DNA of 63,773 bases, the filler included, from Sphacelaria rigidula (taxonomy: Eukaryota): the NCBI GenBank assembly GCA_964200075.2. It is 10 parts of 10 records of this genome, joined end to end, with 100 filler letters (N's around TTAATTAATTAA, not from the genome) between each part and the next. Parts side by side here need not be neighbours in the genome. Positions count along the whole stretch, not along the records: positions 51,100 to 57,386 come from CAXNAA020021005.1; 9 more parts are not named here. One strand, given 5' to 3'. Positions 6,289 to 59,716 of this stretch are shown in pieces. Below the pieces are notes generated by a model. It was not told the DNA's origin. It saw only the letters and a list, made by a program, of their open reading frames with translations, and did not search any database. Made by a program: the position numbers and the translations under genes. Each line of letters opens with the position of its first letter. Positions within the stretch are counted from its first letter, which is position 1.

Positions 6289-6388
6289 NNNNNNNNNNNN
6301 NNNNNNNNNNNNNNNNNNNNNNNNNNNNNNNNTTAATTAATTAANNNNNNNNNNNNNNNNNNNNNNNNNNNNNNNNNNNNNNNNNNNN
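6289..6388. other. Artificial contig linker
   Basis: 44 N + TTAATTAATTAA (stops in six frames) + 44 N. Confidence 0.99.
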
Positions 6389-10268: not shown

Positions 10269-10709
10269 AACACGGGATTTTACAAATTGGGGATGGATTT
10301 TTTATTGGGGATGAGAAATCCGGAGAATTCAATTTTCTTATCCACATCAAATCTTCGAAATATGGTTCCATTTCTTCACTTGCTGGTAGCTATTGACAAC
10401 CACTACACGCGATACAAATTTGGATCTCGATAACCGAAATGTTGGGGTCCCAGGTGAAAAACCAATTTTGGGGAATTTCGGCTATCTGATCGGATCATGT
10501 AAATCCCCCAAGATTGTTTCTGCACCTAGGACCCCAACATGTCGGTTATCAGGATCCAAATTGGTATGACGTGTAGTAGGTGTCATTAGCTACCAGTAGG
10601 TGAATAAGTAGAACTATATTTCGAAGATTTGGTATGGATACGAAAATTTTAATTCCCCGGGTTCTCATCCTCCTCAGAAAATCCTCCCCAATTTGTAAAA
10701 TCCCGTGTT
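10269..10709. mobile_element. Foldback MITE (~440 bp, ~210-bp arms) inserted in the LINE 3' region
   Basis: AACACGGGATTTTACAAATTGGGGA ... TCCCCAATTTGTAAAATCCCGTGTT; complementarity continues inward to a ~20-nt centre. Confidence 0.9.
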
Positions 10710-16332: not shown

Positions 16333-17120
16333 GGGTTAACGGCGTTGGGCTACCAAATGTTCATGGTTGATATTACTTGATTTGAGTGTGTACAACGAGA
16401 ATCGGATCTTTGGTAGGGCTGACAGTCCTGTGTGCCCCTCGGGTGTGCAGAACGCGTTTTCTAGTGAATCGGCGCCACGGGCGTCGATTTTGGGTCTACC
16501 AAGGGAATGCTACAAACCACCCTTGCCCGAGGGTTCTCGGTATGCGTTGGGTTGGGGTTAGCCTGCTCCTTATAAGGGACGATAATAAAAATCTGGAAAA
16601 GTGCTTTTTTGGAGCTTTCACGTCGTTTTACGCCCCAAAAGAGAGCTAGGCGGACGTTGACACGTTGGAATGACTTGCTCTACTAGTTGAGGCGGTTCCA
16701 GGACATCTTCCCGTTTTCCGGTTGCCGCAGTTTTCATTTTGGCTGATCAAGAATTTTTGTCCCAAAACGGTGGAAAAAATAGTCGAAGTCCAGAGAAAAG
16801 CGGTGATTTTTTCTAGATCTGACCGTTTTTCACCGTTCTTCGACAAATATTCTTGTTTGGCCAAAATGAAAACTGCGGCCACCGGAAAACGGGAAGATGT
16901 CCTGGAACCGCCTCAACTATTAATAGTAGAGCAACTCATTCCAAGGCGTCAAACTCCGCCTAGCTCGCTTTTGGGGCGTAAAACGACGTAAAAGCTCCAA
17001 ACAGGCACTTTTCCATCTTTTTATTCTTGTCTATTAGAAGGAGCGGCCTTAGGGTTAGAGATAGCGATACTTGTAAAAATGTGCCAATCACGAACATTTG
17101 TAGCCCAACGCCGGTTAACC
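16333..17120. mobile_element. TIR element hosting a nested MITE
   Basis: GGTTAACGGCGTTGGGCTACCAAATGTTCATG vs CACGAACATTTGTAGCCCAACGCCGGTTAACC. The same terminus recurs at ~41476-41497. Confidence 0.75.
16561..17048. mobile_element. PIF/Harbinger (Tourist-like) foldback MITE
   Basis: TTA TSD on both sides (16558-16560, 17049-17051); ends GCCTGCTCC / GGAGCGGCC; ~230-bp arms. Related copy at 23211-23706. Confidence 0.88.
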
Positions 17121-23210: not shown

Positions 23211-23706
23211 GGTCGCTCCTTATGGCAGACAAGAATAAAAATCTGGACAAGTGTACCTTTTCCAAGATCCTGCGCCGTGCTACGCCGTAAAAGAGAGCTA
23301 TGATGGGCGAATTTTGACAGCTTGGAATGAATGTCTTTGCTGTACTCGTTGCGACGGTTCCAGCACACCCGCGTGTTTTCCCGGTAGCCGCAGTTTTTTT
23401 TTGTATCCAACTTGCATTTTTCTCGAAGACCGGTCGAGTGGAGACAAATCTCCGAAAGTGTTCCTGAACTTGACCGGTCTCCGAGAAAACTGCAAGTTCG
23501 ATACAAGAAAAAAAACTGCGGCTACCGGGAAAACACGCGGGTGTGCTGGAACCGTCGCAACGAGTACAGCAAAGACATTCATTCGAACGCGTCAAAATCC
23601 GCCCATCATAGCTCTCTTTCACGGCGTAAAATGACGTACATTTAAGCTCCAAAAAGGCACTTCTCCAGATATAGATATATATTGTTGTCTGCCACAGGGA
23701 GCGGCC
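23211..23706. mobile_element. PIF/Harbinger-like foldback MITE (same family as 16561-17048)
   Basis: GGTCGCTCC...GGAGCGGCC ends; long near-perfect arms (AATGTCTTTGCTGTACTCGTTGCGACGGTTCCAGCACACCCGCGTGTTTTCCCGGTAGCCGCAG and its complement). Confidence 0.88.
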
Positions 23707-23912: not shown

Positions 23913-25105
23913 CAGGCTGGGCCAGCCTACAAGCGGGTTTGTACTTTGGAGCGAATTCGCAATTTTTATTAGAGAGTTGGAAAATGAAAATTGGTATGGA
24001 CAATCAACAGGGCATGAAGAAAAGCTGTCTGTTAGGTCCCAACGATTTTTTTTTCGTGAGTTAGGGGCATTTTACTGAAACCTCATCCTGATTTTTGCCC
24101 TTAATTCACGGAAAAAAAAATCGTTGGGACCTCACAGACAGCTTTTCTTCATGCACTGTTGATTGTCCATACCAAATTTCACTTTCCAACTCCAAGAAGA
24201 AAATTACGAATTTACATTTGAAAAACCGAGGCGGCGGAAATTCGGAACAGTATTTCCCAGGCCGTTTATTGGCCCACATTTGGTGTTTGTGGGTTGAAAC
24301 TTTGTGCGGGACCTTGCTAGGTCGTGATGAACCAACAAGATGCGTGAGGTTGGGTTTTATTTTATTTTTTCACTGGTTGAGGGCATTTTAGTATGGTAAC
24401 GATGATTTTTTTACGAGAACATTCGAACCTCTCACGAAAAAAAAAAATGAAGGCCCATTTTTATTTTCTACTCAGCATACCTCTGTCGTTCTCCATGCCA
24501 AGTTTCAAATCACAATTCTAAAAATTGAGCTGAAAATTTGAGTTCAGGCCCAAGAGCAATGTTCATTTTTCCTCAAAACCCCCCTAAAAACACGAGAAAA
24601 AACGAGAAAAAACGGGAAAAGTCGAGTTTTTTTTCGTTATGCACTAGCGGTTTTTCATACCAAATTTTATAGCACAACTCTCAAAAATTGAGACGCGATA
24701 TCCAGATTTAGGTCATCTAGTGCCTCTGCTCGTAATATACTGATTTTAGTATTGAAACTTATGTGCGCCATTTCTCGAGATAGATGGCGAATGAGGTGAA
24801 AGTGAGGGTATCTATCGTCTCCCCGTGCTCCAGGGAAGGTACACACCAAAGATCGTCATCATCCGCTTGATCGATCGTTCGGGGTTTCATATAGATTTTA
24901 ATGTGGACGCTATCTCCGCCAGGTATAGGAAAAACTATGCATGGGGTTTACTCGACGAGGGAAAATTGGCTCAGATTTTTGAGCAGATGGGCACCTTCCC
25001 CTTGATCAGACGATTAATACGATATGCGGATCACGGCCCAACTCGTCTGTGTCGTTGAGATATCGCTTTTAGAGCTTAAATCTGTTTTTAGGCTGGCCCA
25101 GCCTG
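23913..25105. mobile_element. Tc1/mariner-like non-autonomous element with an internal foldback (23954-24212)
   Basis: Perfect 17-bp TIR CAGGCTGGGCCAGCCTA / TAGGCTGGCCCAGCCTG; TA on the left flank, TG on the right; ~120-bp inverted arms inside. Confidence 0.7.
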
Positions 25106-27835: not shown

Positions 27836-28472
27836 GTAGCCCACCTGTAGGGAAACAGAAGCGAACATTTTGACAGCCGTGGTTGGTCAGAATGGTCACT
27901 CCGCTCCCCTCGGGCCTCGTTCGTGGCTCAAAATTTTCCGCGAGAAACTTCCAAACGCACATGGTTGACACGGTGAGCTTCTTGGCTGTCCTGAAACAGG
28001 CCCTCACCCCAGTGTCAAGAACCAACCCCCTGCTCCCTGCAAACCGTCGGATGTCCCGGGACTGTCAGCCGGTGGAAATTTTCCGAGGAGACGTTTGCTG
28101 TCTAAGGGTCAACTGTTATACTTCGTACAGTAAAGCGAGCGTCGCCTCGGAGCATTTTTACGGGCTGACAGTATGGAGACATCCGGAGGTTTCCAGTGAG
28201 CGGGGCGGGTGGTTTTTCGGGGGGGGGGGGTACTTATCTGTTGCTTGCCTAGTCGTATTTGACCACTGACCACGCATCCCTTTCGAGACGAAGCACTGGG
28301 GAAGAGGGCTGTCCGCAGAGCAGCCGGGAAGCTCACGAAGTCAACCATGTGCGTTTGGAAGTTTCCCGCGGAAGATTCTAAGCAAGGGACGAGACCCGAG
28401 AGGCGCGGAATGACCGTTCTGGCCAATCACGGCCGTCAAAATAGGCACGCAGTTCCCCCACAGGTGGATTAC
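27836..28472. mobile_element. Foldback MITE (~640 bp) with a poly-G repeat head inserted in the right arm (28219-28273)
   Basis: GTAGCCCACCTGT / ACAGGTGGATTAC ends; arms pair throughout (e.g. GAAACTTCCAAACGCACATGGTTGAC / GTCAACCATGTGCGTTTGGAAGTTTC). Confidence 0.85.
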
Positions 28473-29648: not shown

Positions 29649-30204
29649 GTATTTCTCATTTTGGACATGGCAATTCAACCATAGATTACGTATCGTAGAC
29701 ACAAATAACGTATGCTCTTCTACTTGTGCCGCCTGTCTGACGCCTCATGTGTTGCCAGCATAGCTTCACATTCTTTGGTGCCGTTGTGGAACATTGAGCA
29801 GAGGCATCAGCAGTATGCAGGAAGTCGCGTTCAGTGGAGAGCGATGGCACGCCGACTGTTTGTCGCCCTTGTATCTAGCGGAGACATATCGCACACATAC
29901 TGACCTCTACACGCTATCGAGACTGCACGATTAAAAACTCTCAGGGGTTCTCTGGAACTATTGTCTGTATAGATACCCAGCATCACCATAATGATGAAAA
30001 AAAAATGGCGTTTTGTGTAGCGGGAAAAGAGCTGTTCTGCACTCCCGAATGTGGTATTGTCCATCTCAGTCAACCTGCGGGGGGGTTGATGTCTAGGGAT
30101 TGAGGAAAAAAGTACAGCGTGTACTCGTAGAATTGAGTAAATGTCGTGGAATAATATTTTCTGGGGGATGGACCACACCCGGTGCGGCAGCAAAAGTAAT
30201 GTGG

Positions 30205-30276
30205 TGGAGGTATGGGGATTTGAACCCCAGACATTTCGCATGCGAAGCGAACACTCTACCCCTGAGCTATACCCCC
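30205..30276 (-). tRNA. tRNA-Ala (anticodon CGC)
   Basis: GGGGGTA TA GCTC AGGGGTA GAGT G TTCGC TTCGCAT GCGAA ATGTC TGGGG TTCAAAT CCCCA TACCTCC A: full cloverleaf, G3:U70 Ala identity pair, TTTT terminator just downstream. Confidence 0.95.
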
Positions 30277-35232: not shown

Positions 35233-35721
35233 AAGAAGGCGATTCTTACGGTGCGTATTTTTGTGGGCTTGTATTCACCACTTTTGATATATTCGATACA
35301 CTGTTTTGGCCGCAGAACAGAGAACATCGCCATCACAAGTCTTCGGCACTTTGCATCGCCCCACCGGAACTGGTCTAGCCCACGTTTTTTATTCGATCGA
35401 CTCCTGCGTTTCAAGAATGGCTTCTTCGACACAATTGCGGTAGGAAAAGAAATGACGTATCTGCTCGTACTTTACCGACCTGCAGACACCGTTTGTTGTT
35501 TTCCTGCCGTGTTTCTGCCAAGAGGCTGTTCTCGAAATATCGGAGTCGAGTGAATCGGAGAAGTGGGCTGGACCCCTCCCGGCGATGCAAAGTGTCGAAG
35601 ACGTGTGGTGGCGATATTCTCTGTTAGCTGCCATAAATCGTATCCAAGTATCATAGAAGTGGATCATGCGAGCACAAAACGATATCAACCGTAAAAAACG
35701 ACCGTAGATTGACGCCTTCTT
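35233..35721. mobile_element. Foldback MITE (~490 bp)
   Basis: AAGAAGGCG / CGCCTTCTT ends; internal pairs GTCTTCGGCACTTTGCATCGCC / GGCGATGCAAAGTGTCGAAGAC and GGTAGGAAAA / TTTTCCTGCC. Confidence 0.8.
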
Positions 35722-49904: not shown

Positions 49905-50730
49905 TCAGTGTGTCGGATCTCCATTCAGCAAAAGCTGTTGAGAAAAATTCATCATTTAGCCCATGTGCATGGATCGGGGGGCAAAAGGATGAATTATTTT
50001 CAACATGTTTTTCTGCTTGTCGGATCCCATATGCTGATAACGGTGCAGTATGCGGGATATGCCCAGCTGACGCTGTTCGTAATAAATATATTTTCCCTCA
50101 TTCTCCGGATGAAAAGGAGGGCAAAGTGAAGATTTATTTCGAGCTTCATTTTTTGCTGTTCAAATTCCAAATCTGCGAGTGCGCATGGGATTTGCTCAGC
50201 AGAAGAAGCTGTACGAAGTAGATCCTTTTCTCGCCCATTTATATTGGGCGAAAAGATTATATGTTTCGTACAGCTTCCTCTGCTGTTCGAAATATATCAT
50301 TTTTTTGCCCAAATATATTGGGGGAAAAAGGATCTGTTTTGAATAGCTTCTCCTGCTGTCCGAGATAAATTCTTTCTTGCCCGATTTGTCCCCCAATCTC
50401 CGGATGAAAAGGAGGGCAAAGTGAAGATTCATTTCGAGCTTCTTTTGCTGTTCAAATTCCAAATCTGCGAGTGTGCATGGGATTTGCGCAGCAGAAGAAG
50501 CTGTTCGAAGTAAATCCTTTTCTCGCCCATTTATATTGGGCGAAAAAATGATCTATTTCGTACAGCTTCCTCTGCTGTTCGAAATATATCCTTTTTTTGC
50601 CCAAATATATTGGGGGAAAAAAGGATCTGTTTTGAATAGCTTCTCCTGCTGTCCGAGACAATTTTTTTCTTGATTCAAATCGAGCAACAAAGATTTTCTC
50701 TTGGACAGCAGGAGGAGCTATTTCAAAAAA
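49905..50730. repeat. Array of palindromic modules including a ~295-bp tandem duplication
   Basis: 50102-50396 is repeated at 50397-50670; each copy contains stacked hairpins. Confidence 0.85.
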
Positions 50731-50999: not shown

Positions 51000-51099
51000 N
51001 NNNNNNNNNNNNNNNNNNNNNNNNNNNNNNNNNNNNNNNNNNNTTAATTAATTAANNNNNNNNNNNNNNNNNNNNNNNNNNNNNNNNNNNNNNNNNNNN
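51000..51099. other. Artificial contig linker
   Basis: Same 100-nt linker. Confidence 0.99.
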
Positions 51100-51568
51100 A
51101 ACCCAACTAGCCTCCTAGCACTCCAGCGTATCGCAAGCATGGACGAAAAGCTACGCAGTGGCGCAGTGGCATCCAGCATATATGGAACAACGACGGAAGT
51201 AACGGTAGGGTTCTCTATATGAATTCTGGATCCATGTCGTTCTCTTCCAGTGACGTTAGGCATATTTTACCCGACGAGCCTGAATAAGCCCCAAAAGCCG
51301 ATCTGTTCGTGTCTTTTCGTGCTTGGTCGGTGACACTTTTTTTGCCCAGTTTGGGGGATCAGGCGCGCCCATAACAGTCAATGCAGCGTCTTTCCTTGGG
51401 CCGCCGCCATCAGCCGGCCCAACTGTGCCTTAGCGCTCGAGGCCGAGGCCGGGGAAAAAGCGAAAACAAATAAATAAGAAAAAAACACCGGCGAAGACAA
51501 TGACAAAGACAAAACCAAGCGGGAAGGGAAAGAACGGAAAGGAACGGGAAAGAAGTGGGGTCTTATAT

Positions 51569-51701
51569 ATGTTACGTCCCGGCGTAGTGCGCATGGGTCG
51601 ATCATGACCAATAACCAAACACGAAAGCGGTACAGTATCCTATTTATGTTATGTTCCGGCGTAGTGCGCATGGGTCGATCATGACCGATGACCAAACACG
51701 A
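51569..51701. repeat. 77-bp-period tandem duplication
   Basis: ATGTTA.GT.CCGGCGTAGTGCGCATGGGTCGATCATGACC.AT.ACCAAACACGA at 51569 and 51646. Confidence 0.85.
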
Positions 51702-52083
51702 GAGCGATATAGTAAGAGATACGGTGGGCATGGGCAAACATGCATAGAACAAGCTCTTTAACAAGGCTTGTGCTTTGTAGGGTATACCCGGAGGTTGGGG
51801 CGTTTTGGTCGACATACTAAACCATATCCGAAAGTTTATCAAACATTCCAGTATGGTTGGGCGAGGTTTCGAGCCTCACTCCGAACACTCCGATAGGGTC
51901 CGGAAGGACATTTACCGATAATATTCCTCTTTTGTTGCTTTTGTAAATACTGCATGCATAATTTCAGCTGGTATACCCTACAGAGCTCAACCTTGTTTTT
52001 TTGTACTGATACAATGTAGGAGAAACTGTTGCTACTTCCAGGGCATATATCGTTACACGTCACAAGGCATCGTTACACGTCAC

Positions 52084-52144
52084 AAGTTAGGCGGCGTCGG
52101 ACCAGGCTAGTACTACGGTGGGGGACGGGAAGGGAAGCCCTGGT
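52084..52144 (+). pseudogene. 5S rRNA 3'-half fragment (internal control region)
   Basis: AAGTTAGGCGGCGTCGGACCAGGCTAGTACTACGGTGGGGGAC...GGGAAGCCCTGGT follows the eukaryotic 5S pattern AAGTTAAGC...GGCC...TAGTACT..GGTGGG.GACC...TGGGAA..CC.GGTGCTGT. Confidence 0.85.
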
Positions 52145-52160
52145 TTGACTTGACTTTGAA

Positions 52161-52219
52161 GAAACAGCGCCGGGGCTCCCCACGTGGTCCCCCACCATAG
52201 AACTAGCCTGGCCCGACGC
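52161..52219 (-). pseudogene. 5S rRNA 3'-half fragment, inverted
   Basis: Reverse complement GCGTCGGGCCAGGCTAGTTCTATGGTGGGGGACCACGTGGGGAGCCCCGGCGCTGTTTC reaches the 5S 3' end. Confidence 0.85.
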
Positions 52220-53051
52220 TTCAGGTGTGACGTGTAACGATAACTTGTGACGTGTAACGATAACTTGTGACGTGTAACGATAAGGGCCCTGATCCTTTTA
52301 TACGGTACTTACTTTGCCCGTACCCACCGGGTGCGGGAGACTGGTGACGTTGGGGCTTCGCTCGCCTTGTTTTCCGCTTTTCGGCGGAAAAACCAAGAGA
52401 GATCTGAATACTTAATTGTTCGTTTTCGGATAGGATAGGTAGGGGTGTTTTTTGGACAATGATAGTGGCGGCTTGAGGTGGAGTCATTTGTTTTGGTGAA
52501 AGGGAACACAAAGTGTAAGACGAACGTGAAACCGCTAGATGGATGGATGAGATGCCTTCAAAATCAGCATTTTTTTTGTTTTTGTCAAATTCGTCACGTC
52601 ACTCATTCCTTACAGTCTGGCGGCTATCGAACAAGGCATCGAAAATCTCGATTTTTTCCGAGGTGCGGGACCCGATTTTTGAACTCACTGTTTCGCACTG
52701 GATTGAGAAGCTCACACGAAAACGTCAATCATTGGTTATTTTTGTAAGGCAAACTAACTTTTGAGCTCCTCTGCTCGGTCTGTCCTTTGAATCTTCTAGC
52801 GTTTTTACACTGATGACTTGCGCTTGATTCTGTTGGTGTCGTTGTCCATGCTACTGTTTACTCCTATCATTTTCTATTTCTCGTTTGTTGTGAAATTTTC
52901 CCTTTTCTTTATTTATTCAACCTCCTTCTCTTCTTTTCTTTTTGTAATTTTGTTTTTCTCTTCTTTGTTCTATTTCTTATCTCTCATTTTTTTTCTCTCT
53001 TTTTTTTTGTGTTTATTTCCTGTGTTTTTGGGGTGGCATGGGGGATTACAG

Positions 53052-54937
53052 GTCATTGGAAGGCATTTCTGTGCGAGGGATGCTGGTAAACCTGTTCTTC
53101 CAAGTGGTCATATTCCTGTACCTCATGGACAACGACACCACTTCCATGGTGCTCATGACCAACGCGATAGGGCTAGCGATTGAGGTAACACTAGCAGGGT
53201 TCCCCACCGAATGAAATGCGCCGCGCCCAGCTGAACACCGGCGAACCCCCTACATGCCTTGCGCATCATGTCACGCAACGTTACGTGCTGTACGGTCGAC
53301 TGCGGAGTTTATCACCCGGGGCGATGAAACACCCCAAGCTCGACCATACGTATATTACCAAATTTTTACGATTTTTGAGGCCTGATTCACCCGAAAGAGC
53401 GAACAGAATGGTCACAGGACAATACATTCCGCAAGTATTTTCTTACGTACCTGGCGTGTGCGCGTACCTGGGGTGCAGTACAGCACTGAAAACAGAGCAC
53501 AAAGAATGATTCCTACGGCACGCATCAATTATAAAAAAAGGCGAGTAATATTCACACGAATCATTATTATTCCTACCCTTGTATCTATAAATTATTTCCA
53601 GTGCCGTTCCTTCCCCCGAAATAATCATGTGCTCCAGTTCTGAGAAATCCATCAGCGTATCTCTCTCTCTCGATATGCGCCTGACATTTTGGTACCGGGA
53701 TCGCGGATTTGGACCATGACCAGCACTCTCGTACCGCGTGCTGAATAAGCCACATCACAGAAACAAAGTAGTATGGCCGAGCACACAGAAATCCCCTCAC
53801 CGCACGTGGAAGGGTTGAGGTGCGATACGGTATTGACGCGATTCACCGCCAGTTGGAAGCGGTCGCGGGTCTGAAGGAAAACACGCCTTGGGCATAATAG
53901 TAGTCCTTGGAAGTTGCAAACAATCAACCATATGTTGTCAATTAAAAAGCACCTCGAATATATGTGATACACGTTGATATTTTGCTGTTCTCTTTTTTAG
54001 TCTGGCTTTTTTTTTCTGTATCGCTGCTCTGCTGGTTTTGCTGATCCGTCGGATTACAGTCGCTGGTCGCCCGATAAACGATCACTTTTGGGTCCAGCAT
54101 TGTCGGCAGAAGTCGAGACAACACTTGAATACGTGAAGGAGAGTGGTGATTTTCGTGTTACACGTGATTTTGGTGGTTGTTGCTGGTGCTATAGTTTCAA
54201 ACTGAAGTTGGTGATCGCGAACGGTTTAATCAGCGAATAAAACAACAGCTCGGACTCTTGTTCGCGGTCAGTGAAAATGAATATATCGTTCATGTGTTCT
54301 TATTTTTTATTTTGAAGAAATAAACACAAACACGCCTTCCTGCAGTGTCGCGCACAGGCGAGATTTGCTTGTGGTAATGATATCGGTGGTGGTGATTGCA
54401 GCGTGTGTTTTCCCGCTGTCGAAGGGTCTTGGAGCGCTTCTCCCAGGGATCACACCGCTCGCCCGCCCACCCCTCCTTTCCCCCACCACCGATATTGTTG
54501 GGAAAAATACGGATATCACGTACTTCCAAGTCAGATACAAATTCATTACGAAACTTGTTTTCATTCTGAAGCTTCACGTAGGACACATGTGATTATGGTG
54601 TGATATGGTGGATTACAAAATAACATGCGTAGCACTCTTCTCTTCCGACCTGTGCTTTTCCCGATTTTGCGGTTTTGTGTTTGTGGCCTCCTGTGGCAAC
54701 CCACCAGGACATCCTGCGTTCAATCTTGCACTTTGTGTTGTGTTACATTATTCATTTTAACTCGTGTGCGCGTGTGAATATATTTTGTGATTTCCTCGAC
54801 ATTTATTTTTCTCTTTTGTTCAGGTATGGAAGATAGGACGGTTTATTGCTGGAAAATTAGACTGGGGGGGACAAGACGGGCAGCCAGTCCGCATCATCCC
54901 CAAGCTTACGTTCCGAGCTCGAGAGGTCTACCGCAAG
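53052..54937 (+). CDS. CLPTM1: CLPTM1-family membrane protein, two internal exons (53052-53184, 54824-54937)
   Basis: Spliced SLEGISVRGMLVNLFFQVVIFLYLMDNDTTSMVLMTNAIGLAIE-VWKIGRFIAGKLDWGGQDGQPVRIIPKLTFRAREVYRK matches CLPTM1 SLEGLSVR....FQ..V.LY.LDNET.......IG..I+.WKI...P+L+F. Canonical AG/GT, phase 0. This frame is not in the ORF track. Confidence 0.9.
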
Positions 54938-57266
54938 GTGACGGACACGTTAGATGTGGGACGGGGGGGACGGAGGGACGCGAGAAGAAACGAACGCAAG
55001 CAAGAATAAACTAGAGGAAAGAGAACAAGAGAGGCGGGCGTGCAGTTTTGAATTTTGTTTGCGTTATGATTTTATCGCGTAGTTTTCATCTTCTGTTAAC
55101 TTTCATGAACAAGTGGGTGCCATTTTGTTGTATTCTTCCTTTGAAAATATACTGTAACGCCTCATTCGTTTAGGGCCGCAGAAGGGTCAGAACAGTAACA
55201 TCATTGTCAGGTGAGCTGCGGGTATTTGCTGGTCGTATCCGGATTCACCGTGTGTAGGGTCTATCCGTTGCCTTCATTCTCATTATCTACAAACGGCTCT
55301 AGTTTAATCGCACCAGCTTTCGGAGACGGCTATGGGCGTTACCACATAACGAGAATGCACCGCTCCGGTATCCCCCGCCGTTCCCCTCGCACACTTTGGA
55401 GTATGACCCTTCCGGCATCATGAACTCAGTTTTTATTTTCTTCTCGTCACTCATTTGTTCAATTCCTCGCCTTCCTCGGAACGAAAAATCTGTGGTCACC
55501 AGGGATGTACTGTACACACCTCTCCCCCGGTGCATGCACGCCTCATGTTTTGGTAATAGCGGGTCGGATCACCATTCTCGCTACAGCGTGGACTCTCTTC
55601 AAGTGCATATTTTTTATAAACACGTGCGTTCTCGCGTTTCCAAGGGCGGAAATTATATACTTCTCTAGGATTTTTTCCTTTCTCATATGCATCATCTGCC
55701 GGGAAACGCACCCGCATTTTCCGATGTATCGGCTTTCGGTTGTACCTGTTGTACCCCCCGGGGCGCAGATTGACCAACTACATAGATCTTAGAGAGGATT
55801 TTCTTATCTGGCTGTTGATGATGCGTGATTATTTGGTTGGCCTTACCGATCCTGTAGAAGGCATCGCACCCTGAAGAATAGCAATATTGTACATCACATT
55901 GTCAGAGAGATATAATGCGTACAGTGCGGAATCTTGTGTCTTTTGCAATAGACGCAATGGTTGATACTGTACGCAGTACAATTTTCGACTATTTAATCCA
56001 TAATCTAGGTTGTGGAACGCTTAGGGGATGTTCCTTTTTATTGAGGGGGATCTGCGTGATTTCGCCAGGGCTGCCGGATCACGAGAATGGTCCGATGCTG
56101 ATTTTGACCAGGATTAGTACAATCAGTGCGTTCCCCTGTGTACCCCTGGAGCACCATGTTCCGAACAGGCAGTTGTTGGCTTTCATTTTGTTTTTTTTCC
56201 AAGGTGATGACCTGATGCATTATGAGGGAGCTGTTCTGCCGCACCGTTCGCAATTCGTTCACCGAGCATTGATGTCACCCGACACTCGTAAGGTACAGTA
56301 ACATACCCCGGGTATCGCAGCATACAACCCGGCAGGGATGATACGAAAGCACAACCCCGGTTTTTGTCTATGAGCAAGGCCCCACTGTGTCATAATATCC
56401 CCTGGCCAGATGGACTTTGAGGATATATTTCTAAGGCGCGTTGGTGGCGTGGCCGCCGAATCTCACTAGAAAATGGAGGGTGTTACACTCCGTGCAACAC
56501 TGGTATCCAACCCGTGTTTTCCCTTCCTGCTGCTCTGGCGCTATTGCTTAGCGTTGGAGTCGTGTGTCCGTCGAATCGCGGCTCTTTCACAGAGTTAGCG
56601 CGACAATAGCGTTTACCCTCAACTCTAGTTCGTGTGTGGCTTCTATTTTCATTAGTATGGAGTACCCAGTGGCGCCTTGGGAAGAAAGGAAAACATGATG
56701 CCCAATTTTCATCGCGGAAGAAGCATACAGGTAGAAACAATCGTCACGATATGATGAACTTTATTTTCGCTCAGTTTCTCCCCCCCTCTTTTGTCGCTGT
56801 TTTCATGACTCCTAGTGGGTACATGACGGCACTCTGGCCCTTCTCTCTTCCCCACGTGTGTCCTTAGGTGTAGGGAAATAGTGCGGTTGGAGTCCCACGA
56901 GTGTACGATTGATTGCCTAGCTCGTAAGACCGCATCGGGATCTCGCACTATTCTCGTACTCAAGAACTATTTTAATGACCGTATAGCGACTCGAACTTGT
57001 GACGAGAAATTTATTTTGGTCGAACTGTAGTAAGACTCCCACGGTACTGCAGTAGTACTGCTGAATACAGGACCTTGAGTCAAGAACATCTCGTTCAAAT
57101 GGACAATATCATTCATTCTCCAGCCAGGCATGACTCCAGACGTTATATTCTGACCCCTGGGCATACGGCGCTTCTTACCCGAAAGTTTGTCATGAAATCC
57201 ATATTTTGGGCGACTTGCTTGTGAAAAAGAAAAACGCCCCCCTCCCCCTGTCGGGAAGGGATGAAT

Positions 57267-59269: not shown

Positions 59270-59716
59270 CGTAATGACCCACTGTTGATCCGTACAAATT
59301 CCATACCGGTGATTCCCGCCATAGAGACGGAAGGATGAAGGTCGACTTTCCTCAGGGGTGTCCGTCAGAATCACCCTCCGTGCTTGGTTGTCCGGGTCAT
59401 GAAGAAGCGGATCCAAAAACGATGGAGAAGATGAAGCGCGACCCGTAAGAAGCAGCACAAGCGGGAACGCTGGAAGCAAGGAGTCGTTGCTTTCCCGCTT
59501 GCGTTGCTTCTTACAATCGCGCTTCATCTTCTCCATCGTTTTTTTATCCACTTCTTCATGACCTCAACAAGCAAGCACTGAGAATCATCTAGCATGATGA
59601 GAGCTGTTTCTGCCGGACACCCGCGAGGAGGGTCGACGTCCGTCCGTCCGTTCCCATGGCGAGAATCCCCGGGTTAAACTATCGAAACTCGTACACGTGG
59701 ACAATGAGTTATTACG
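59270..59716. ncRNA. Gene-derived long inverted repeat; candidate hairpin-RNA / proto-miRNA locus
   Basis: Near-perfect core stem 59395-59470 / 59489-59563 with looser outer arms; both arms are homologous to the intron/exon junction at ~62530-62700. The inverted repeat is seen directly; expression is not shown. Confidence 0.5.

Follow-up and report, generated by a model that had tools for sequence, protein, structure and literature searches.

At positions 52039-52291 of the window, by which we mean the whole analysed stretch of 63,773 bases from Sphacelaria rigidula, there is a near-perfect hairpin of 253 nt. From the outside inwards it consists of a CAGGGC end, tandem units of 20 bp (two on the left and three on the right) and two convergent pieces of about 70 nt each, both derived from the 5S rRNA gene. 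The terminal inverted repeat pairs 52039-52089 with 52241-52291 (51 nt, 90% complementary), the outermost 6 nt being the same in both arms and the following 3 nt mismatched. The left terminus, CAGGGC, lies at 52039-52044 on the plus strand, where the inverted-repeat arm starts, and its reverse complement, GCCCTG, forms the right terminus at 52286-52291 (minus strand). The original prediction, made from the sequence alone, had placed the ends at GGGC and GCCC; the inverted repeat that it described stands, and the boundary has to be moved two bases further out on each side. Folding of 52036-52294 as RNA gave -168.8 kcal/mol (z = -16.6), a value equalled by none of 200 shuffled sequences, and the fold pairs nearly the whole hairpin around a small loop. 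With its 51-nt arms and identical terminal 6 nt, the element has the terminal inverted repeats of a MITE or non-autonomous TIR DNA transposon; it is also small and non-coding, being made up solely of 20-bp units and 5S-like sequence, and the inverted arrays of 2 + 3 units together with the fold give it a foldback structure. The inverted-repeat, repeat-count and fold results thus agree with the predicted TIR-bounded, non-coding hairpin carrying tandem subterminal repeats. Many other hairpin elements were observed in the same window.

The 20-bp units share an 18-nt core, ATCGTTACACGTCACAAG, which occurs five times in the window, always within the element: on the plus strand at 52049 and 52069, and on the minus strand at 52244 and 52264 (exact) and at 52224 (two mismatches). 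The shuffle expectation was 0.04 matches, and five were reached in 0 of 100 shuffles. In the repeat search, the left subterminal array (52049-52086, plus strand) comprised two exact copies of the core separated by GC, and the right one (52224-52281, minus strand) three units separated by TT, the innermost of which carries the two mismatches; the period of 20 was confirmed, as was the predicted number of units on each side. Comparison of the arms revealed differences at 0 of 36 unit positions versus 10 of 52 positions of the 5S parts (Fisher p = 0.005). This contrast, and the identical terminal 6 nt beside a 3-nt mismatch, argue for ends that may be under constraint, and tandem-repeat homogenisation instead of selection could account for the identity of the units.

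The left terminal 14-mer, sought across the window with up to three mismatches, was matched seven times, compared with 3.8 matches expected (at least seven in 11 of 100 shuffles); two of the seven are the element's own ends, and nothing beyond chance was seen. All three matches obtained when the element was compared with the window by BLAST were internal to it. In metagenomes, the two-unit pattern was found at 18 loci, all of them unrelated simple repeats of the ACGTTAC type and none with a 5S-like arm, while a 17-mer of the unit gave six single matches in genome contigs, all from prokaryotic MAGs, none with a second unit and taken as chance; viral contigs scanned for the unit yielded 0 matches. 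Longer and more degenerate arrays of the 20-bp unit lie elsewhere in contigs of run X6 (seen at place 52245).

The Rfam model of 5S rRNA (RF00001) matched the middle of the element twice, at 52062-52154 on the plus strand (23.1 bits, E 0.022) and at 52159-52245 on the minus strand (22.2 bits, E 0.039), both below the gathering score of 38. The two matches do not count as independent evidence, one arm being a copy of the other (52094-52143 and 52170-52219 are 80% complementary), and a scan of the whole window with E up to 1 revealed no further 5S-like match. The locus does not qualify as a 5S gene: no match reaches the gathering threshold, and model positions of about 1-49 have no real 5S sequence opposite them. 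Stronger evidence of 5S homology than these sub-threshold scores comes from contigs of the same organism that run past the arm. Contigs of three DNA runs (X1, X3, and X4, from two studies) were aligned to 51100-55000 at 80% likeness, and 30, 21, and 29 of them, respectively, match from 52084 rightwards and share one other sequence before this point, which is read as the putative 5' half of 5S. The mirror case was found at 52219, with loose ends behind it in 22 contigs of X1 and 29 of X4. Likewise, 32, 17, and 31 contigs match from 52159 on and have one common other sequence before it, read as the probable spacer downstream of real 5S genes. Summed contig depth on the 5S arms, which is not a copy number, was about 2x10^5 in X1, as against about 70 for single-copy sequence. 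This genome yields 5S-related contigs in very large number and variety.

On the basis of the Rfam match and these contigs, the plus-strand arm extends over 52084-52155 and corresponds to the part of 5S that starts at about position 50 and includes the 3' end. Its letters depart from the 5S majority at 52090 and 52101 (5S positions 56 and 67), and the arm-to-arm alignment points to a further probable cluster of changes at 52127-52131 (5S 93-97). The minus-strand arm (52159-52229), placed by the Rfam match, the loose contig ends and the alignment of the two halves, departs from the majority letters at 52169, 52172, 52178, 52197, and 52201, the variant 5S positions being 78, 82, 101, 107, and 110; several bases are missing where its 5S part starts, and a self-complementary 8-mer, CCACGTGG, is kept at 52180-52187. 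The hairpin loop at 52145-52160, defined by the RNA fold and by the contigs that begin at 52159, consists of two 5S 3' ends placed tail to tail. A spacer of about 16 nt had been proposed at this point; no foreign spacer is present, and the 16-nt loop is simply where the two 3' ends meet. The proposal of two convergent 5S 3' halves, forming a core that comes from the host 5S gene, was upheld by the sub-threshold Rfam matches and the contigs. Matches to microRNA models were rejected: that to the mir-629 precursor (41.8 bits, gathering score 72) is unspecific, of the sort produced by a long GC-rich hairpin, and those to mir-4667 and other microRNAs, below their cut-offs too, reflect generic hairpin likeness.

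The plus-strand junction between repeat and 5S is the motif AAGTTA (52084-52089), as judged from the sequence, the comparison with the right array and the Rfam anchor. The anchor sets 52089 at model position 55, and the right array shows the unit running on through CACAAG TT A; AAGTTA extends the 20-bp unit (CACAAG + TT + A) and also represents positions 50-55 of 5S. Since it belongs to both, the join is a 6-nt microhomology, so that the microhomology junction first suggested is real and its overlap longer than had been stated. The two repeat/5S junctions of the element are unlike each other, with four substitutions and a small gap between them, which is not what a single palindrome-forming event predicts without later change.

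The locus is probably not a single-copy rearrangement, an outcome considered in the original prediction, as contig depth exceeds the single-copy level in all three DNA runs and six joints place the structure elsewhere. Relative to single-copy depths of about 70, 11.4, and 37.9 in X1, X3, and X4, the summed contig depth (again not equivalent to copy number) was 2,323, 506, and 1,090 at 52065 in the units (about 30-45 times single-copy), 10,351, 1,542, and 5,485 at 52261, also in the units (135-148 times), and 1,633, 327, and 936 at 52143 (23-29 times). Position 52143 lies past the stretch of the plus-strand arm that is unlike the minus-strand arm, and the abundant 5S contigs evidently stop short of it; another letter was found there in 18, 19, and 21 contigs of the three runs. 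Among the 15 joints listed (of 41 in total), seven are within the element, and for all of them it holds that joints of less than 95% likeness or with short sides are often repeat-derived. Four lead from the plus-strand arm or from the loop into the 20-bp array on the right (52244-52265), and two connect the plus-strand arm to the minus-strand arm (52124 to 52182 and 52125 to 52180); each of these six has about single-copy depth and appeared in two or three of the DNA runs. None of the 15 joints listed skips the whole element, as an empty site would. The recurrence of this architecture at other loci is supported by the depth and the joints of one contig alignment rather than by the sequence of a copy.

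In X1, the bin 52279-52409 has a summed depth of 541 and the one after it 69.9, which is the single-copy value, and the flanks are single-copy from about 52292 onward. In X4, which belongs to a separate study and is labelled as an algae metagenome, contigs cross the left edge from the flank as far as 52120 and cross the right edge outwards from 52254; both edges at this site are present in X1 and X4 and are not an assembly artefact. None of the contigs listed bridges 52121-52253, so the short-read contigs leave the centre of this copy unconfirmed. In a rival explanation, no transposon is involved, and a palindrome of a dispersed 5S pseudogene with a 20-bp minisatellite would have been spread by segmental duplication or ectopic recombination, without a transposase. 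Such an origin would suit the very abundant and varied 5S-related contigs, the longer degenerate unit arrays of the X6 contigs, and the lack of a target-site duplication in the flanks, of an empty site among the joints listed and of an autonomous partner among the window ORFs. Segmental duplication would, however, bring the flanks along, and depth is single-copy again by the bin after the right end; moreover, the outer ends are symmetric and conserved, and the structure fits foldback/MITE elements, which are frequent in the window. We consider this explanation quite unlikely.

The flanking sequences are GCTACTTC on the left and ATCCTTTT on the right. The original prediction had called for the target-site duplication to be defined. 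Inspection by eye revealed none of 2-10 bp at the two candidate boundaries (52039/52291 and 52041/52289), although a duplication may have decayed after insertion. PIF/Harbinger transposons create a 3-bp duplication, usually TWA; the 3-nt flanks of the element, TTC and ATC, are unequal and not of the expected kind, which leaves the proposed Harbinger affinity without support. The hAT transposons create an 8-bp duplication, and the terminal pentamer of the element resembles some hAT ends. Membership of hAT was also rejected, as the 8-nt flanks GCTACTTC and ATCCTTTT are unmatched, and the likeness of the terminus is a lead only. Assignment to a superfamily, Harbinger included, is not supported. 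Among the 24 longest ORFs of the window, Pfam indicated no family above its cut-off and no transposase domain; no homologue of the 404-aa ORF was recovered from proteins 222-707 residues long, and the ESM Atlas gave no usable match.

Outer ends without a target-site duplication would also be expected if the locus held remnants of a DNA transposon that targets 5S genes and inserts at about 5S position 50, with the 20-bp units as its subterminal repeats; a derivation from such a transposon had also been raised in the original prediction. The locus would then be a palindromised junction and not a mobile element, and the recurrent joining of units to a 5S 3' half would reflect repeated site-specific insertion. 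Transposons of this type exist, since Dada-5S of actinopterygian fish, a 5S-specific DNA transposon, is described in the accessible part of its report as producing duplications of 6-7 bp (PMC8869645). The 5S start position is nearly the same in both arms (about 46-50), and six X4 contigs match the deleted version of the minus-strand arm to 52224 and continue into one common sequence, read as 5S 5'-half-like, both of which are consistent with such targeting. Several observations argue against it. The outer edges both carry CAGGGC, unchanged beyond a 3-nt mismatch, as real termini would; the other loci are palindromic too (six joints), so that palindromes would have had to form repeatedly and independently; and the depth of the units is about 20 to 400 times below that of the 5S arms, so that such an insertion can be present in only a small share of the 5S genes. 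An identification with Dada-5S itself was rejected, as its published target motif, which by eye corresponds to about 5S 90-103 of the Rfam consensus, is unbroken in both arms and not at the junction, which falls at 5S 50-55, and the 5S sequence lies within the ends of the element. On balance, we regard 5S targeting as unlikely.

The reading that we prefer, with a probability of roughly 55%, is that the element is one member of a family of small, non-coding, foldback-type (MITE-like) DNA transposons, with passenger DNA of 5S origin in the middle. The CAGGGC termini, together with the two or three 20-bp units per side, would do the work, as putative binding sites of a transposase presumably made elsewhere in the genome; if the family is active, these units would point to the transposase binding site in a repeat-rich genome. 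The passenger would consist of two copies, in tail-to-tail orientation, of the last ~70 nt (3' end) of a host 5S gene. At first, a 5S piece would have been joined to the repeat array as DNA via AAGTTA, which could have happened by template switching or microhomology-mediated repair during gap repair, and the half-element would then have been made into a palindrome. Shorter members would have arisen by central deletion, aided by CCACGTGG, the self-complementary 8-mer of the 5S part. The 5S pieces themselves seem to be decaying and are most likely no longer Pol III promoters.

The original prediction had seen in the arms captured promoters, i.e., working 5S internal promoters on which Pol III, with TFIIIA and TFIIIC, would start about 50 nt upstream of box A. 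The start would then lie near the left edge and the whole hairpin would be transcribed, giving double-stranded RNA with antisense 5S, or the element would serve as a factor decoy. By the Rfam anchor, the plus-strand arm begins at 5S position 50, which we take, from Xenopus work, to be where box A begins. The predicted absence of T4 inside the element was also confirmed: within 51990-52340, T or A runs of four or more letters occur only as T7 at 51996-52002 and as T4 at 52296-52299, and neither of these is in the element. This T4, on the plus strand and 5 nt past the right end, is the sole possible plus-strand Pol III stop; it belongs to the unique flank and may therefore be absent from other copies, and its presence is put down to chance. 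In X6, guessed to be RNA, the right units reach a depth of 580 (at 52261), whereas the 5S arms have only 3.8-8.7, from one contig, and the nature of the run is itself a guess. An X6 contig (51849-52042) ends at the left edge of the element, and no conclusion on expression was drawn from this run.

The sequence of the arms speaks against a working promoter. The 5' 49 nt of 5S are absent, and both arms are changed relative to the majority letters, also within the putative control region. Placed by what we assume to be the corresponding Xenopus coordinates, this region includes positions 56, 67, and 93-97 of the plus-strand arm, the last group being a probable change, and position 82 of the minus-strand arm, which in addition lacks bases. 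That the arms differ at 10 of 52 positions while the units are identical is the opposite of what selection for a promoter predicts. The 5S core kept by the retroelement Cassandra is similar in size (~70 bp) and, in the accessible part of the description, comprises the A box, the intermediate element and the C box (PMC10853983), which is a point in favour of the promoter hypothesis; nevertheless, we find it very improbable. Even less credence is given to its widest form, in which mobile hairpins took up the 5S control region at the DNA level and still use it, Pol III or read-through transcription yields a hairpin of sense and antisense 5S, and the copies either sequester TFIIIA or supply small RNAs that target the 5S arrays. 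If true, Cassandra and the 5S-SINEs would thereby gain their first counterpart with TIRs, and 5S dosage would have a regulator carried by a transposon.

As a foldback-type transposon with passenger 5S DNA, the element would show that fragments of Pol III genes can be picked up at the DNA level, with a readable 6-nt junction, and that such 5S pieces can spread through a genome without a promoter role. Copies of this kind inflate and confuse 5S annotation as well as 5S-based repeat or FISH analyses, and each of them is a potential source of double-stranded RNA with antisense 5S.

Foldback-type MITEs include FB of Drosophila, FARE/Hairpin of Arabidopsis and SoFT of Solanaceae. The element resembles them in being small, non-coding and almost entirely inverted repeat, in having a short conserved terminus followed inwards by tandem subterminal repeats, and in probably having multiple copies which, judging by the contigs, vary in unit number and central deletions. 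It differs from them in its core, where part of a host gene of the Pol III class (5S) can be recognised as an inverted duplicate. Our literature search, with coverage that was without most subscription journals and Repbase and is no proof of absence, found no MITE or foldback element with a 5S-derived core. In the accessible part of a 2024 review, mobile elements derived from 5S are retroelements driven by the 5S internal promoter, namely SINEs and the TRIMs Cassandra and Ajax, and every 5S-derived entry shown in its table of rDNA-derived elements is a SINE or a TRIM. With the Cassandra/Ajax TRIMs and the 5S-derived SINEs (such as SINE3 and 5S-Sauria), as far as they are covered there, the element shares its non-autonomous character and a 5S segment of about 70 nt over the internal control region. 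Those elements move by an RNA route, have LTRs or LINE-type tails and conserve the boxes, whereas the element described here has TIRs, no LTR, no poly(A) or LINE tail, and mutations at putative box positions. A 5S-derived retroelement was rejected as an identification, since the 5S part starts at about position 50 and is an inverted duplicate, with neither an A-rich tail nor long direct repeats. The sole DNA-transposon/MITE entry shown in the same table, Pokey/mPok (piggyBac, Daphnia), is likewise a DNA transposon/MITE family with internal rDNA-derived sequence; there, however, the sequence is the IGS of the large rDNA and the target is 28S, while the cargo here is the body of the 5S gene. Finally, like Dada-5S, the element would be a DNA transposon physically associated with 5S, but Dada-5S resides inside 5S genes, with the 5S halves outside its ends, whereas here the 5S sequence is enclosed by the ends and the junction lies at 5S 50-55.

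The element at 52039-52291 (253 nt) is self-complementary over nearly its whole length. Its outer arms (52039-52089 and 52241-52291, 51 nt each, 90% complementary) uphold the inverted repeat of the original prediction, which had placed its ends at GGGC/GCCC, whereas the true ends, CAGGGC on the left and GCCCTG on the right, lie two bases further out. Inward of both termini, 20-bp units built around the core ATCGTTACACGTCACAAG are repeated in tandem, namely two exact copies on the left and three oppositely oriented units on the right, the innermost with two mismatches; the core count and the period of 20 agree with the two left and three right subterminal repeats expected. Within the 63,773-base window, this core (up to three mismatches) was matched five times, always in the element, against 0.04 expected, and 0 of 100 shuffles reached five. 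Between the unit arrays, a pair of ~70-nt arms converges, 80% complementary across 50 nt: the + arm (52084-52155) and the - arm (52159-52229). The predicted convergence of two 5S halves was retained, whereas the separate spacer of ~16 nt was not, the hairpin "loop" being the meeting point of the two 5S 3' ends. The RNA fold of 52036-52294 reached -168.8 kcal/mol (z = -16.6), and the only T or A runs of at least four near the element, T7 at 51996-52002 and T4 at 52296-52299, are both external, as the predicted lack of an internal T4 requires.

No 5S reached the Rfam gathering threshold in the element; when 551 nt were scanned permissively, the + arm matched 5S_rRNA at 23.1 bits (E 0.022) and the - arm at 22.2 bits (E 0.039). 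Both scores are weak, below the cut-off of 38, and the two matches are not mutually independent. The sole RNA gene of the window above its Rfam threshold is a tRNA-Ala(CGC) gene (30202-30276, minus strand). The decisive evidence for a 5S origin came instead from aligning publicly available contigs of this organism (DNA runs X1, X3, and X4, from two studies) to 51100-55000 at 80% likeness, the start being set by an adjoining N block. Such N44 + TTAATTAATTAA + N44 blocks occur at nine places (6289-6388, then every 6,387-6,388 bases, e.g., 51000-51099) and resemble sequence that was inserted or withheld rather than a biological feature. The summed contig depth in X1 was ~2x10^5 on the 5S arms versus ~70 on the single-copy flank. 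Contigs matching rightwards from 52084 shared one common other sequence before it (30/21/29 in X1/X3/X4), which we read as the 5S 5' half. The mirrored arrangement is seen behind 52219, in 22 X1 and 29 X4 contigs. The common sequence before 52159 (32/17/31 contigs) is read as the spacer that follows genuine 5S genes. Accordingly, the arms are the 3' part of the organism's own 5S gene. Rfam anchors 52089 at model position 55, so the + arm begins at 5S position 50 and reaches roughly to the 3' end; the element has no counterpart of 5S nucleotides 1-49.

The right-array unit continues ...CACAAG TT A(TCG)..., and therefore AAGTTA at 52084-52089 on the left is both repeat-unit continuation and 5S 50-55. 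This 6-nt overlap, longer than in the original prediction of such a join, makes a classic microhomology junction and suggests a join at the DNA level (template switch or end joining), not retroposition. The - arm junction is unlike it, with CACACC followed by a 5S start several bases shorter. That the junctions are palindromised remnants of a 5S-targeting transposon seems unlikely: Dada-5S shows that such transposons exist, but its target motif (PMC8869645) maps to about 5S 90-103, away from the element's junction.

Relative to the majority letters of 5S contigs, the + arm differs at 52090 and 52101 (5S 56 and 67) and the - arm at 52201, 52197, 52178, 52172, and 52169 (5S 78, 82, 101, 107, and 110). 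Arm-to-arm alignment added a 5-nt cluster at 52127-52131 (5S 93-97), where the contig alignment itself gave no difference; we infer that the + arm is the altered one, since the - arm is unflagged against the majority at the matching places. In Xenopus 5S, box A lies at ~50-64, the intermediate element at 67-72, and box C at 80-97. By this numbering, we take both arms to be altered within the control region, and part of box A to be gone from the - arm. The arms differ from each other at 10 of 52 5S positions versus none of 36 unit positions (Fisher p = 0.005), which locates conservation at the ends, not in the 5S core. A hairpin with working 5S promoters, as originally proposed, is very improbable. 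We favour, with a probability of roughly 0.55, a foldback/MITE-type DNA element that is non-autonomous: its ends would be the functional part, and the 5S core passenger DNA undergoing decay. The element's mobility and any 5S-related function are putative.

In X1, probably the source sample, one contig enters from the left flank and ends at 52120 and another starts at 52255 and continues into the right flank, both without differences, and the corresponding two contigs of X4, from another study, show 5 and 15 differences; both element edges are therefore independently confirmed. None of the contigs listed bridges 52121-52253, no empty site was seen in the contig alignment, and no direct repeat of 2-10 bp was found at either candidate boundary. 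A repeat of 5S pseudogene plus minisatellite, with no transposon involved, is quite unlikely.

Scans of metagenome, genome-contig, and viral-contig collections returned no copies of the element, so the case for a family is indirect and comes from the contig alignment. Summed contig depth, which does not equal copy number, was ~70, 11.4, and 37.9 on the single-copy flank in X1, X3, and X4, respectively, and rose to 2,323, 506, and 1,090 in the left units (52065; ~30-45x), 10,351, 1,542, and 5,485 in the right units (52261; ~135-148x), and 1,633, 327, and 936 in the distal + arm (52143; 23-29x). The last position is on the far side of a segment in which the two arms diverge; evidently, the abundant 5S contigs stop short of it, and 18/19/21 contigs show another letter there. 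Depth in X1 fell from 541 in bin 52279-52409 to 69.9 in the following bin, so the repeated zone stops close to the right terminus. Seven of the 15 joints listed (of 41) lie inside the element, each at about single-copy depth and present in two or three runs; joints below 95% likeness reflect repeats, here the thing sought. Of these seven, four lead from 52123-52157, in the + arm or loop, to the right array at 52244-52265, two of them with other 5S-like or unit-like sequence as printed intervening letters; two link + arm to - arm (52124 to 52182, 52125 to 52180), yielding a shorter hairpin, and one turns back on itself. The short-hairpin joints adjoin CCACGTGG (52180-52187, - arm), an 8-mer identical to its own reverse complement, which we infer to promote strand switching or deletion of the centre.

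The neighbourhood holds further repeats. A second small TIR element (51768-51990; arms 51768-51788 and 51970-51990, 21 nt, 90% complementary) lies 48 bp to the left, at ~20x single-copy summed depth, and four joints show its internal-deletion variants elsewhere in the genome. A very abundant repeat at 51100-51492 (X1 summed depth up to 157,000, ~2,000x single-copy) has sharp loose ends at 51323 (64-70 contigs) and 51378 (33-41 contigs), and gave no Rfam match in the whole-window scan. A dispersed repeat at 53720-53981 (~160-300x), matched by several contigs at ~85-90%, also occurs in X6, a possible RNA run. Tandem duplications are present at 51564-51714 (77 bp x 2.0, 89% matches) and 50500-50656 (74 bp x 2.1, 81% matches), the latter inside a nested-hairpin cluster (50197-50727). 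Moreover, the window carries many long hairpin- or foldback-like inverted repeats, whose arms measure 45-194 nt (10285-10694, 16560-17049, 23281-23628, 23954-24212, 27867-28442, 35316-35625, and 59376-59582), probably other MITE families; that at 23954-24212 gave sub-threshold matches to plant miRNA precursor families.

Full-text literature searches, with Repbase and most subscription journals outside their scope, returned no report of a 5S-derived core in a MITE or foldback element. In the accessible portion of a 2024 review on rDNA-TE links, 5S-derived TEs are SINEs and TRIMs only, and the sole DNA-transposon/MITE entry is Pokey/mPok. The architecture described here is that of an ordinary foldback/MITE; its cargo is unusual and clearly traceable. 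Cassandra retains a ~70-bp 5S core across the boxes (PMC10853983), whereas the arms of the element are altered at box positions by the Xenopus numbering; Pokey/mPok, as far as the review's entry goes, carries IGS sequence, whereas the element carries 5S.
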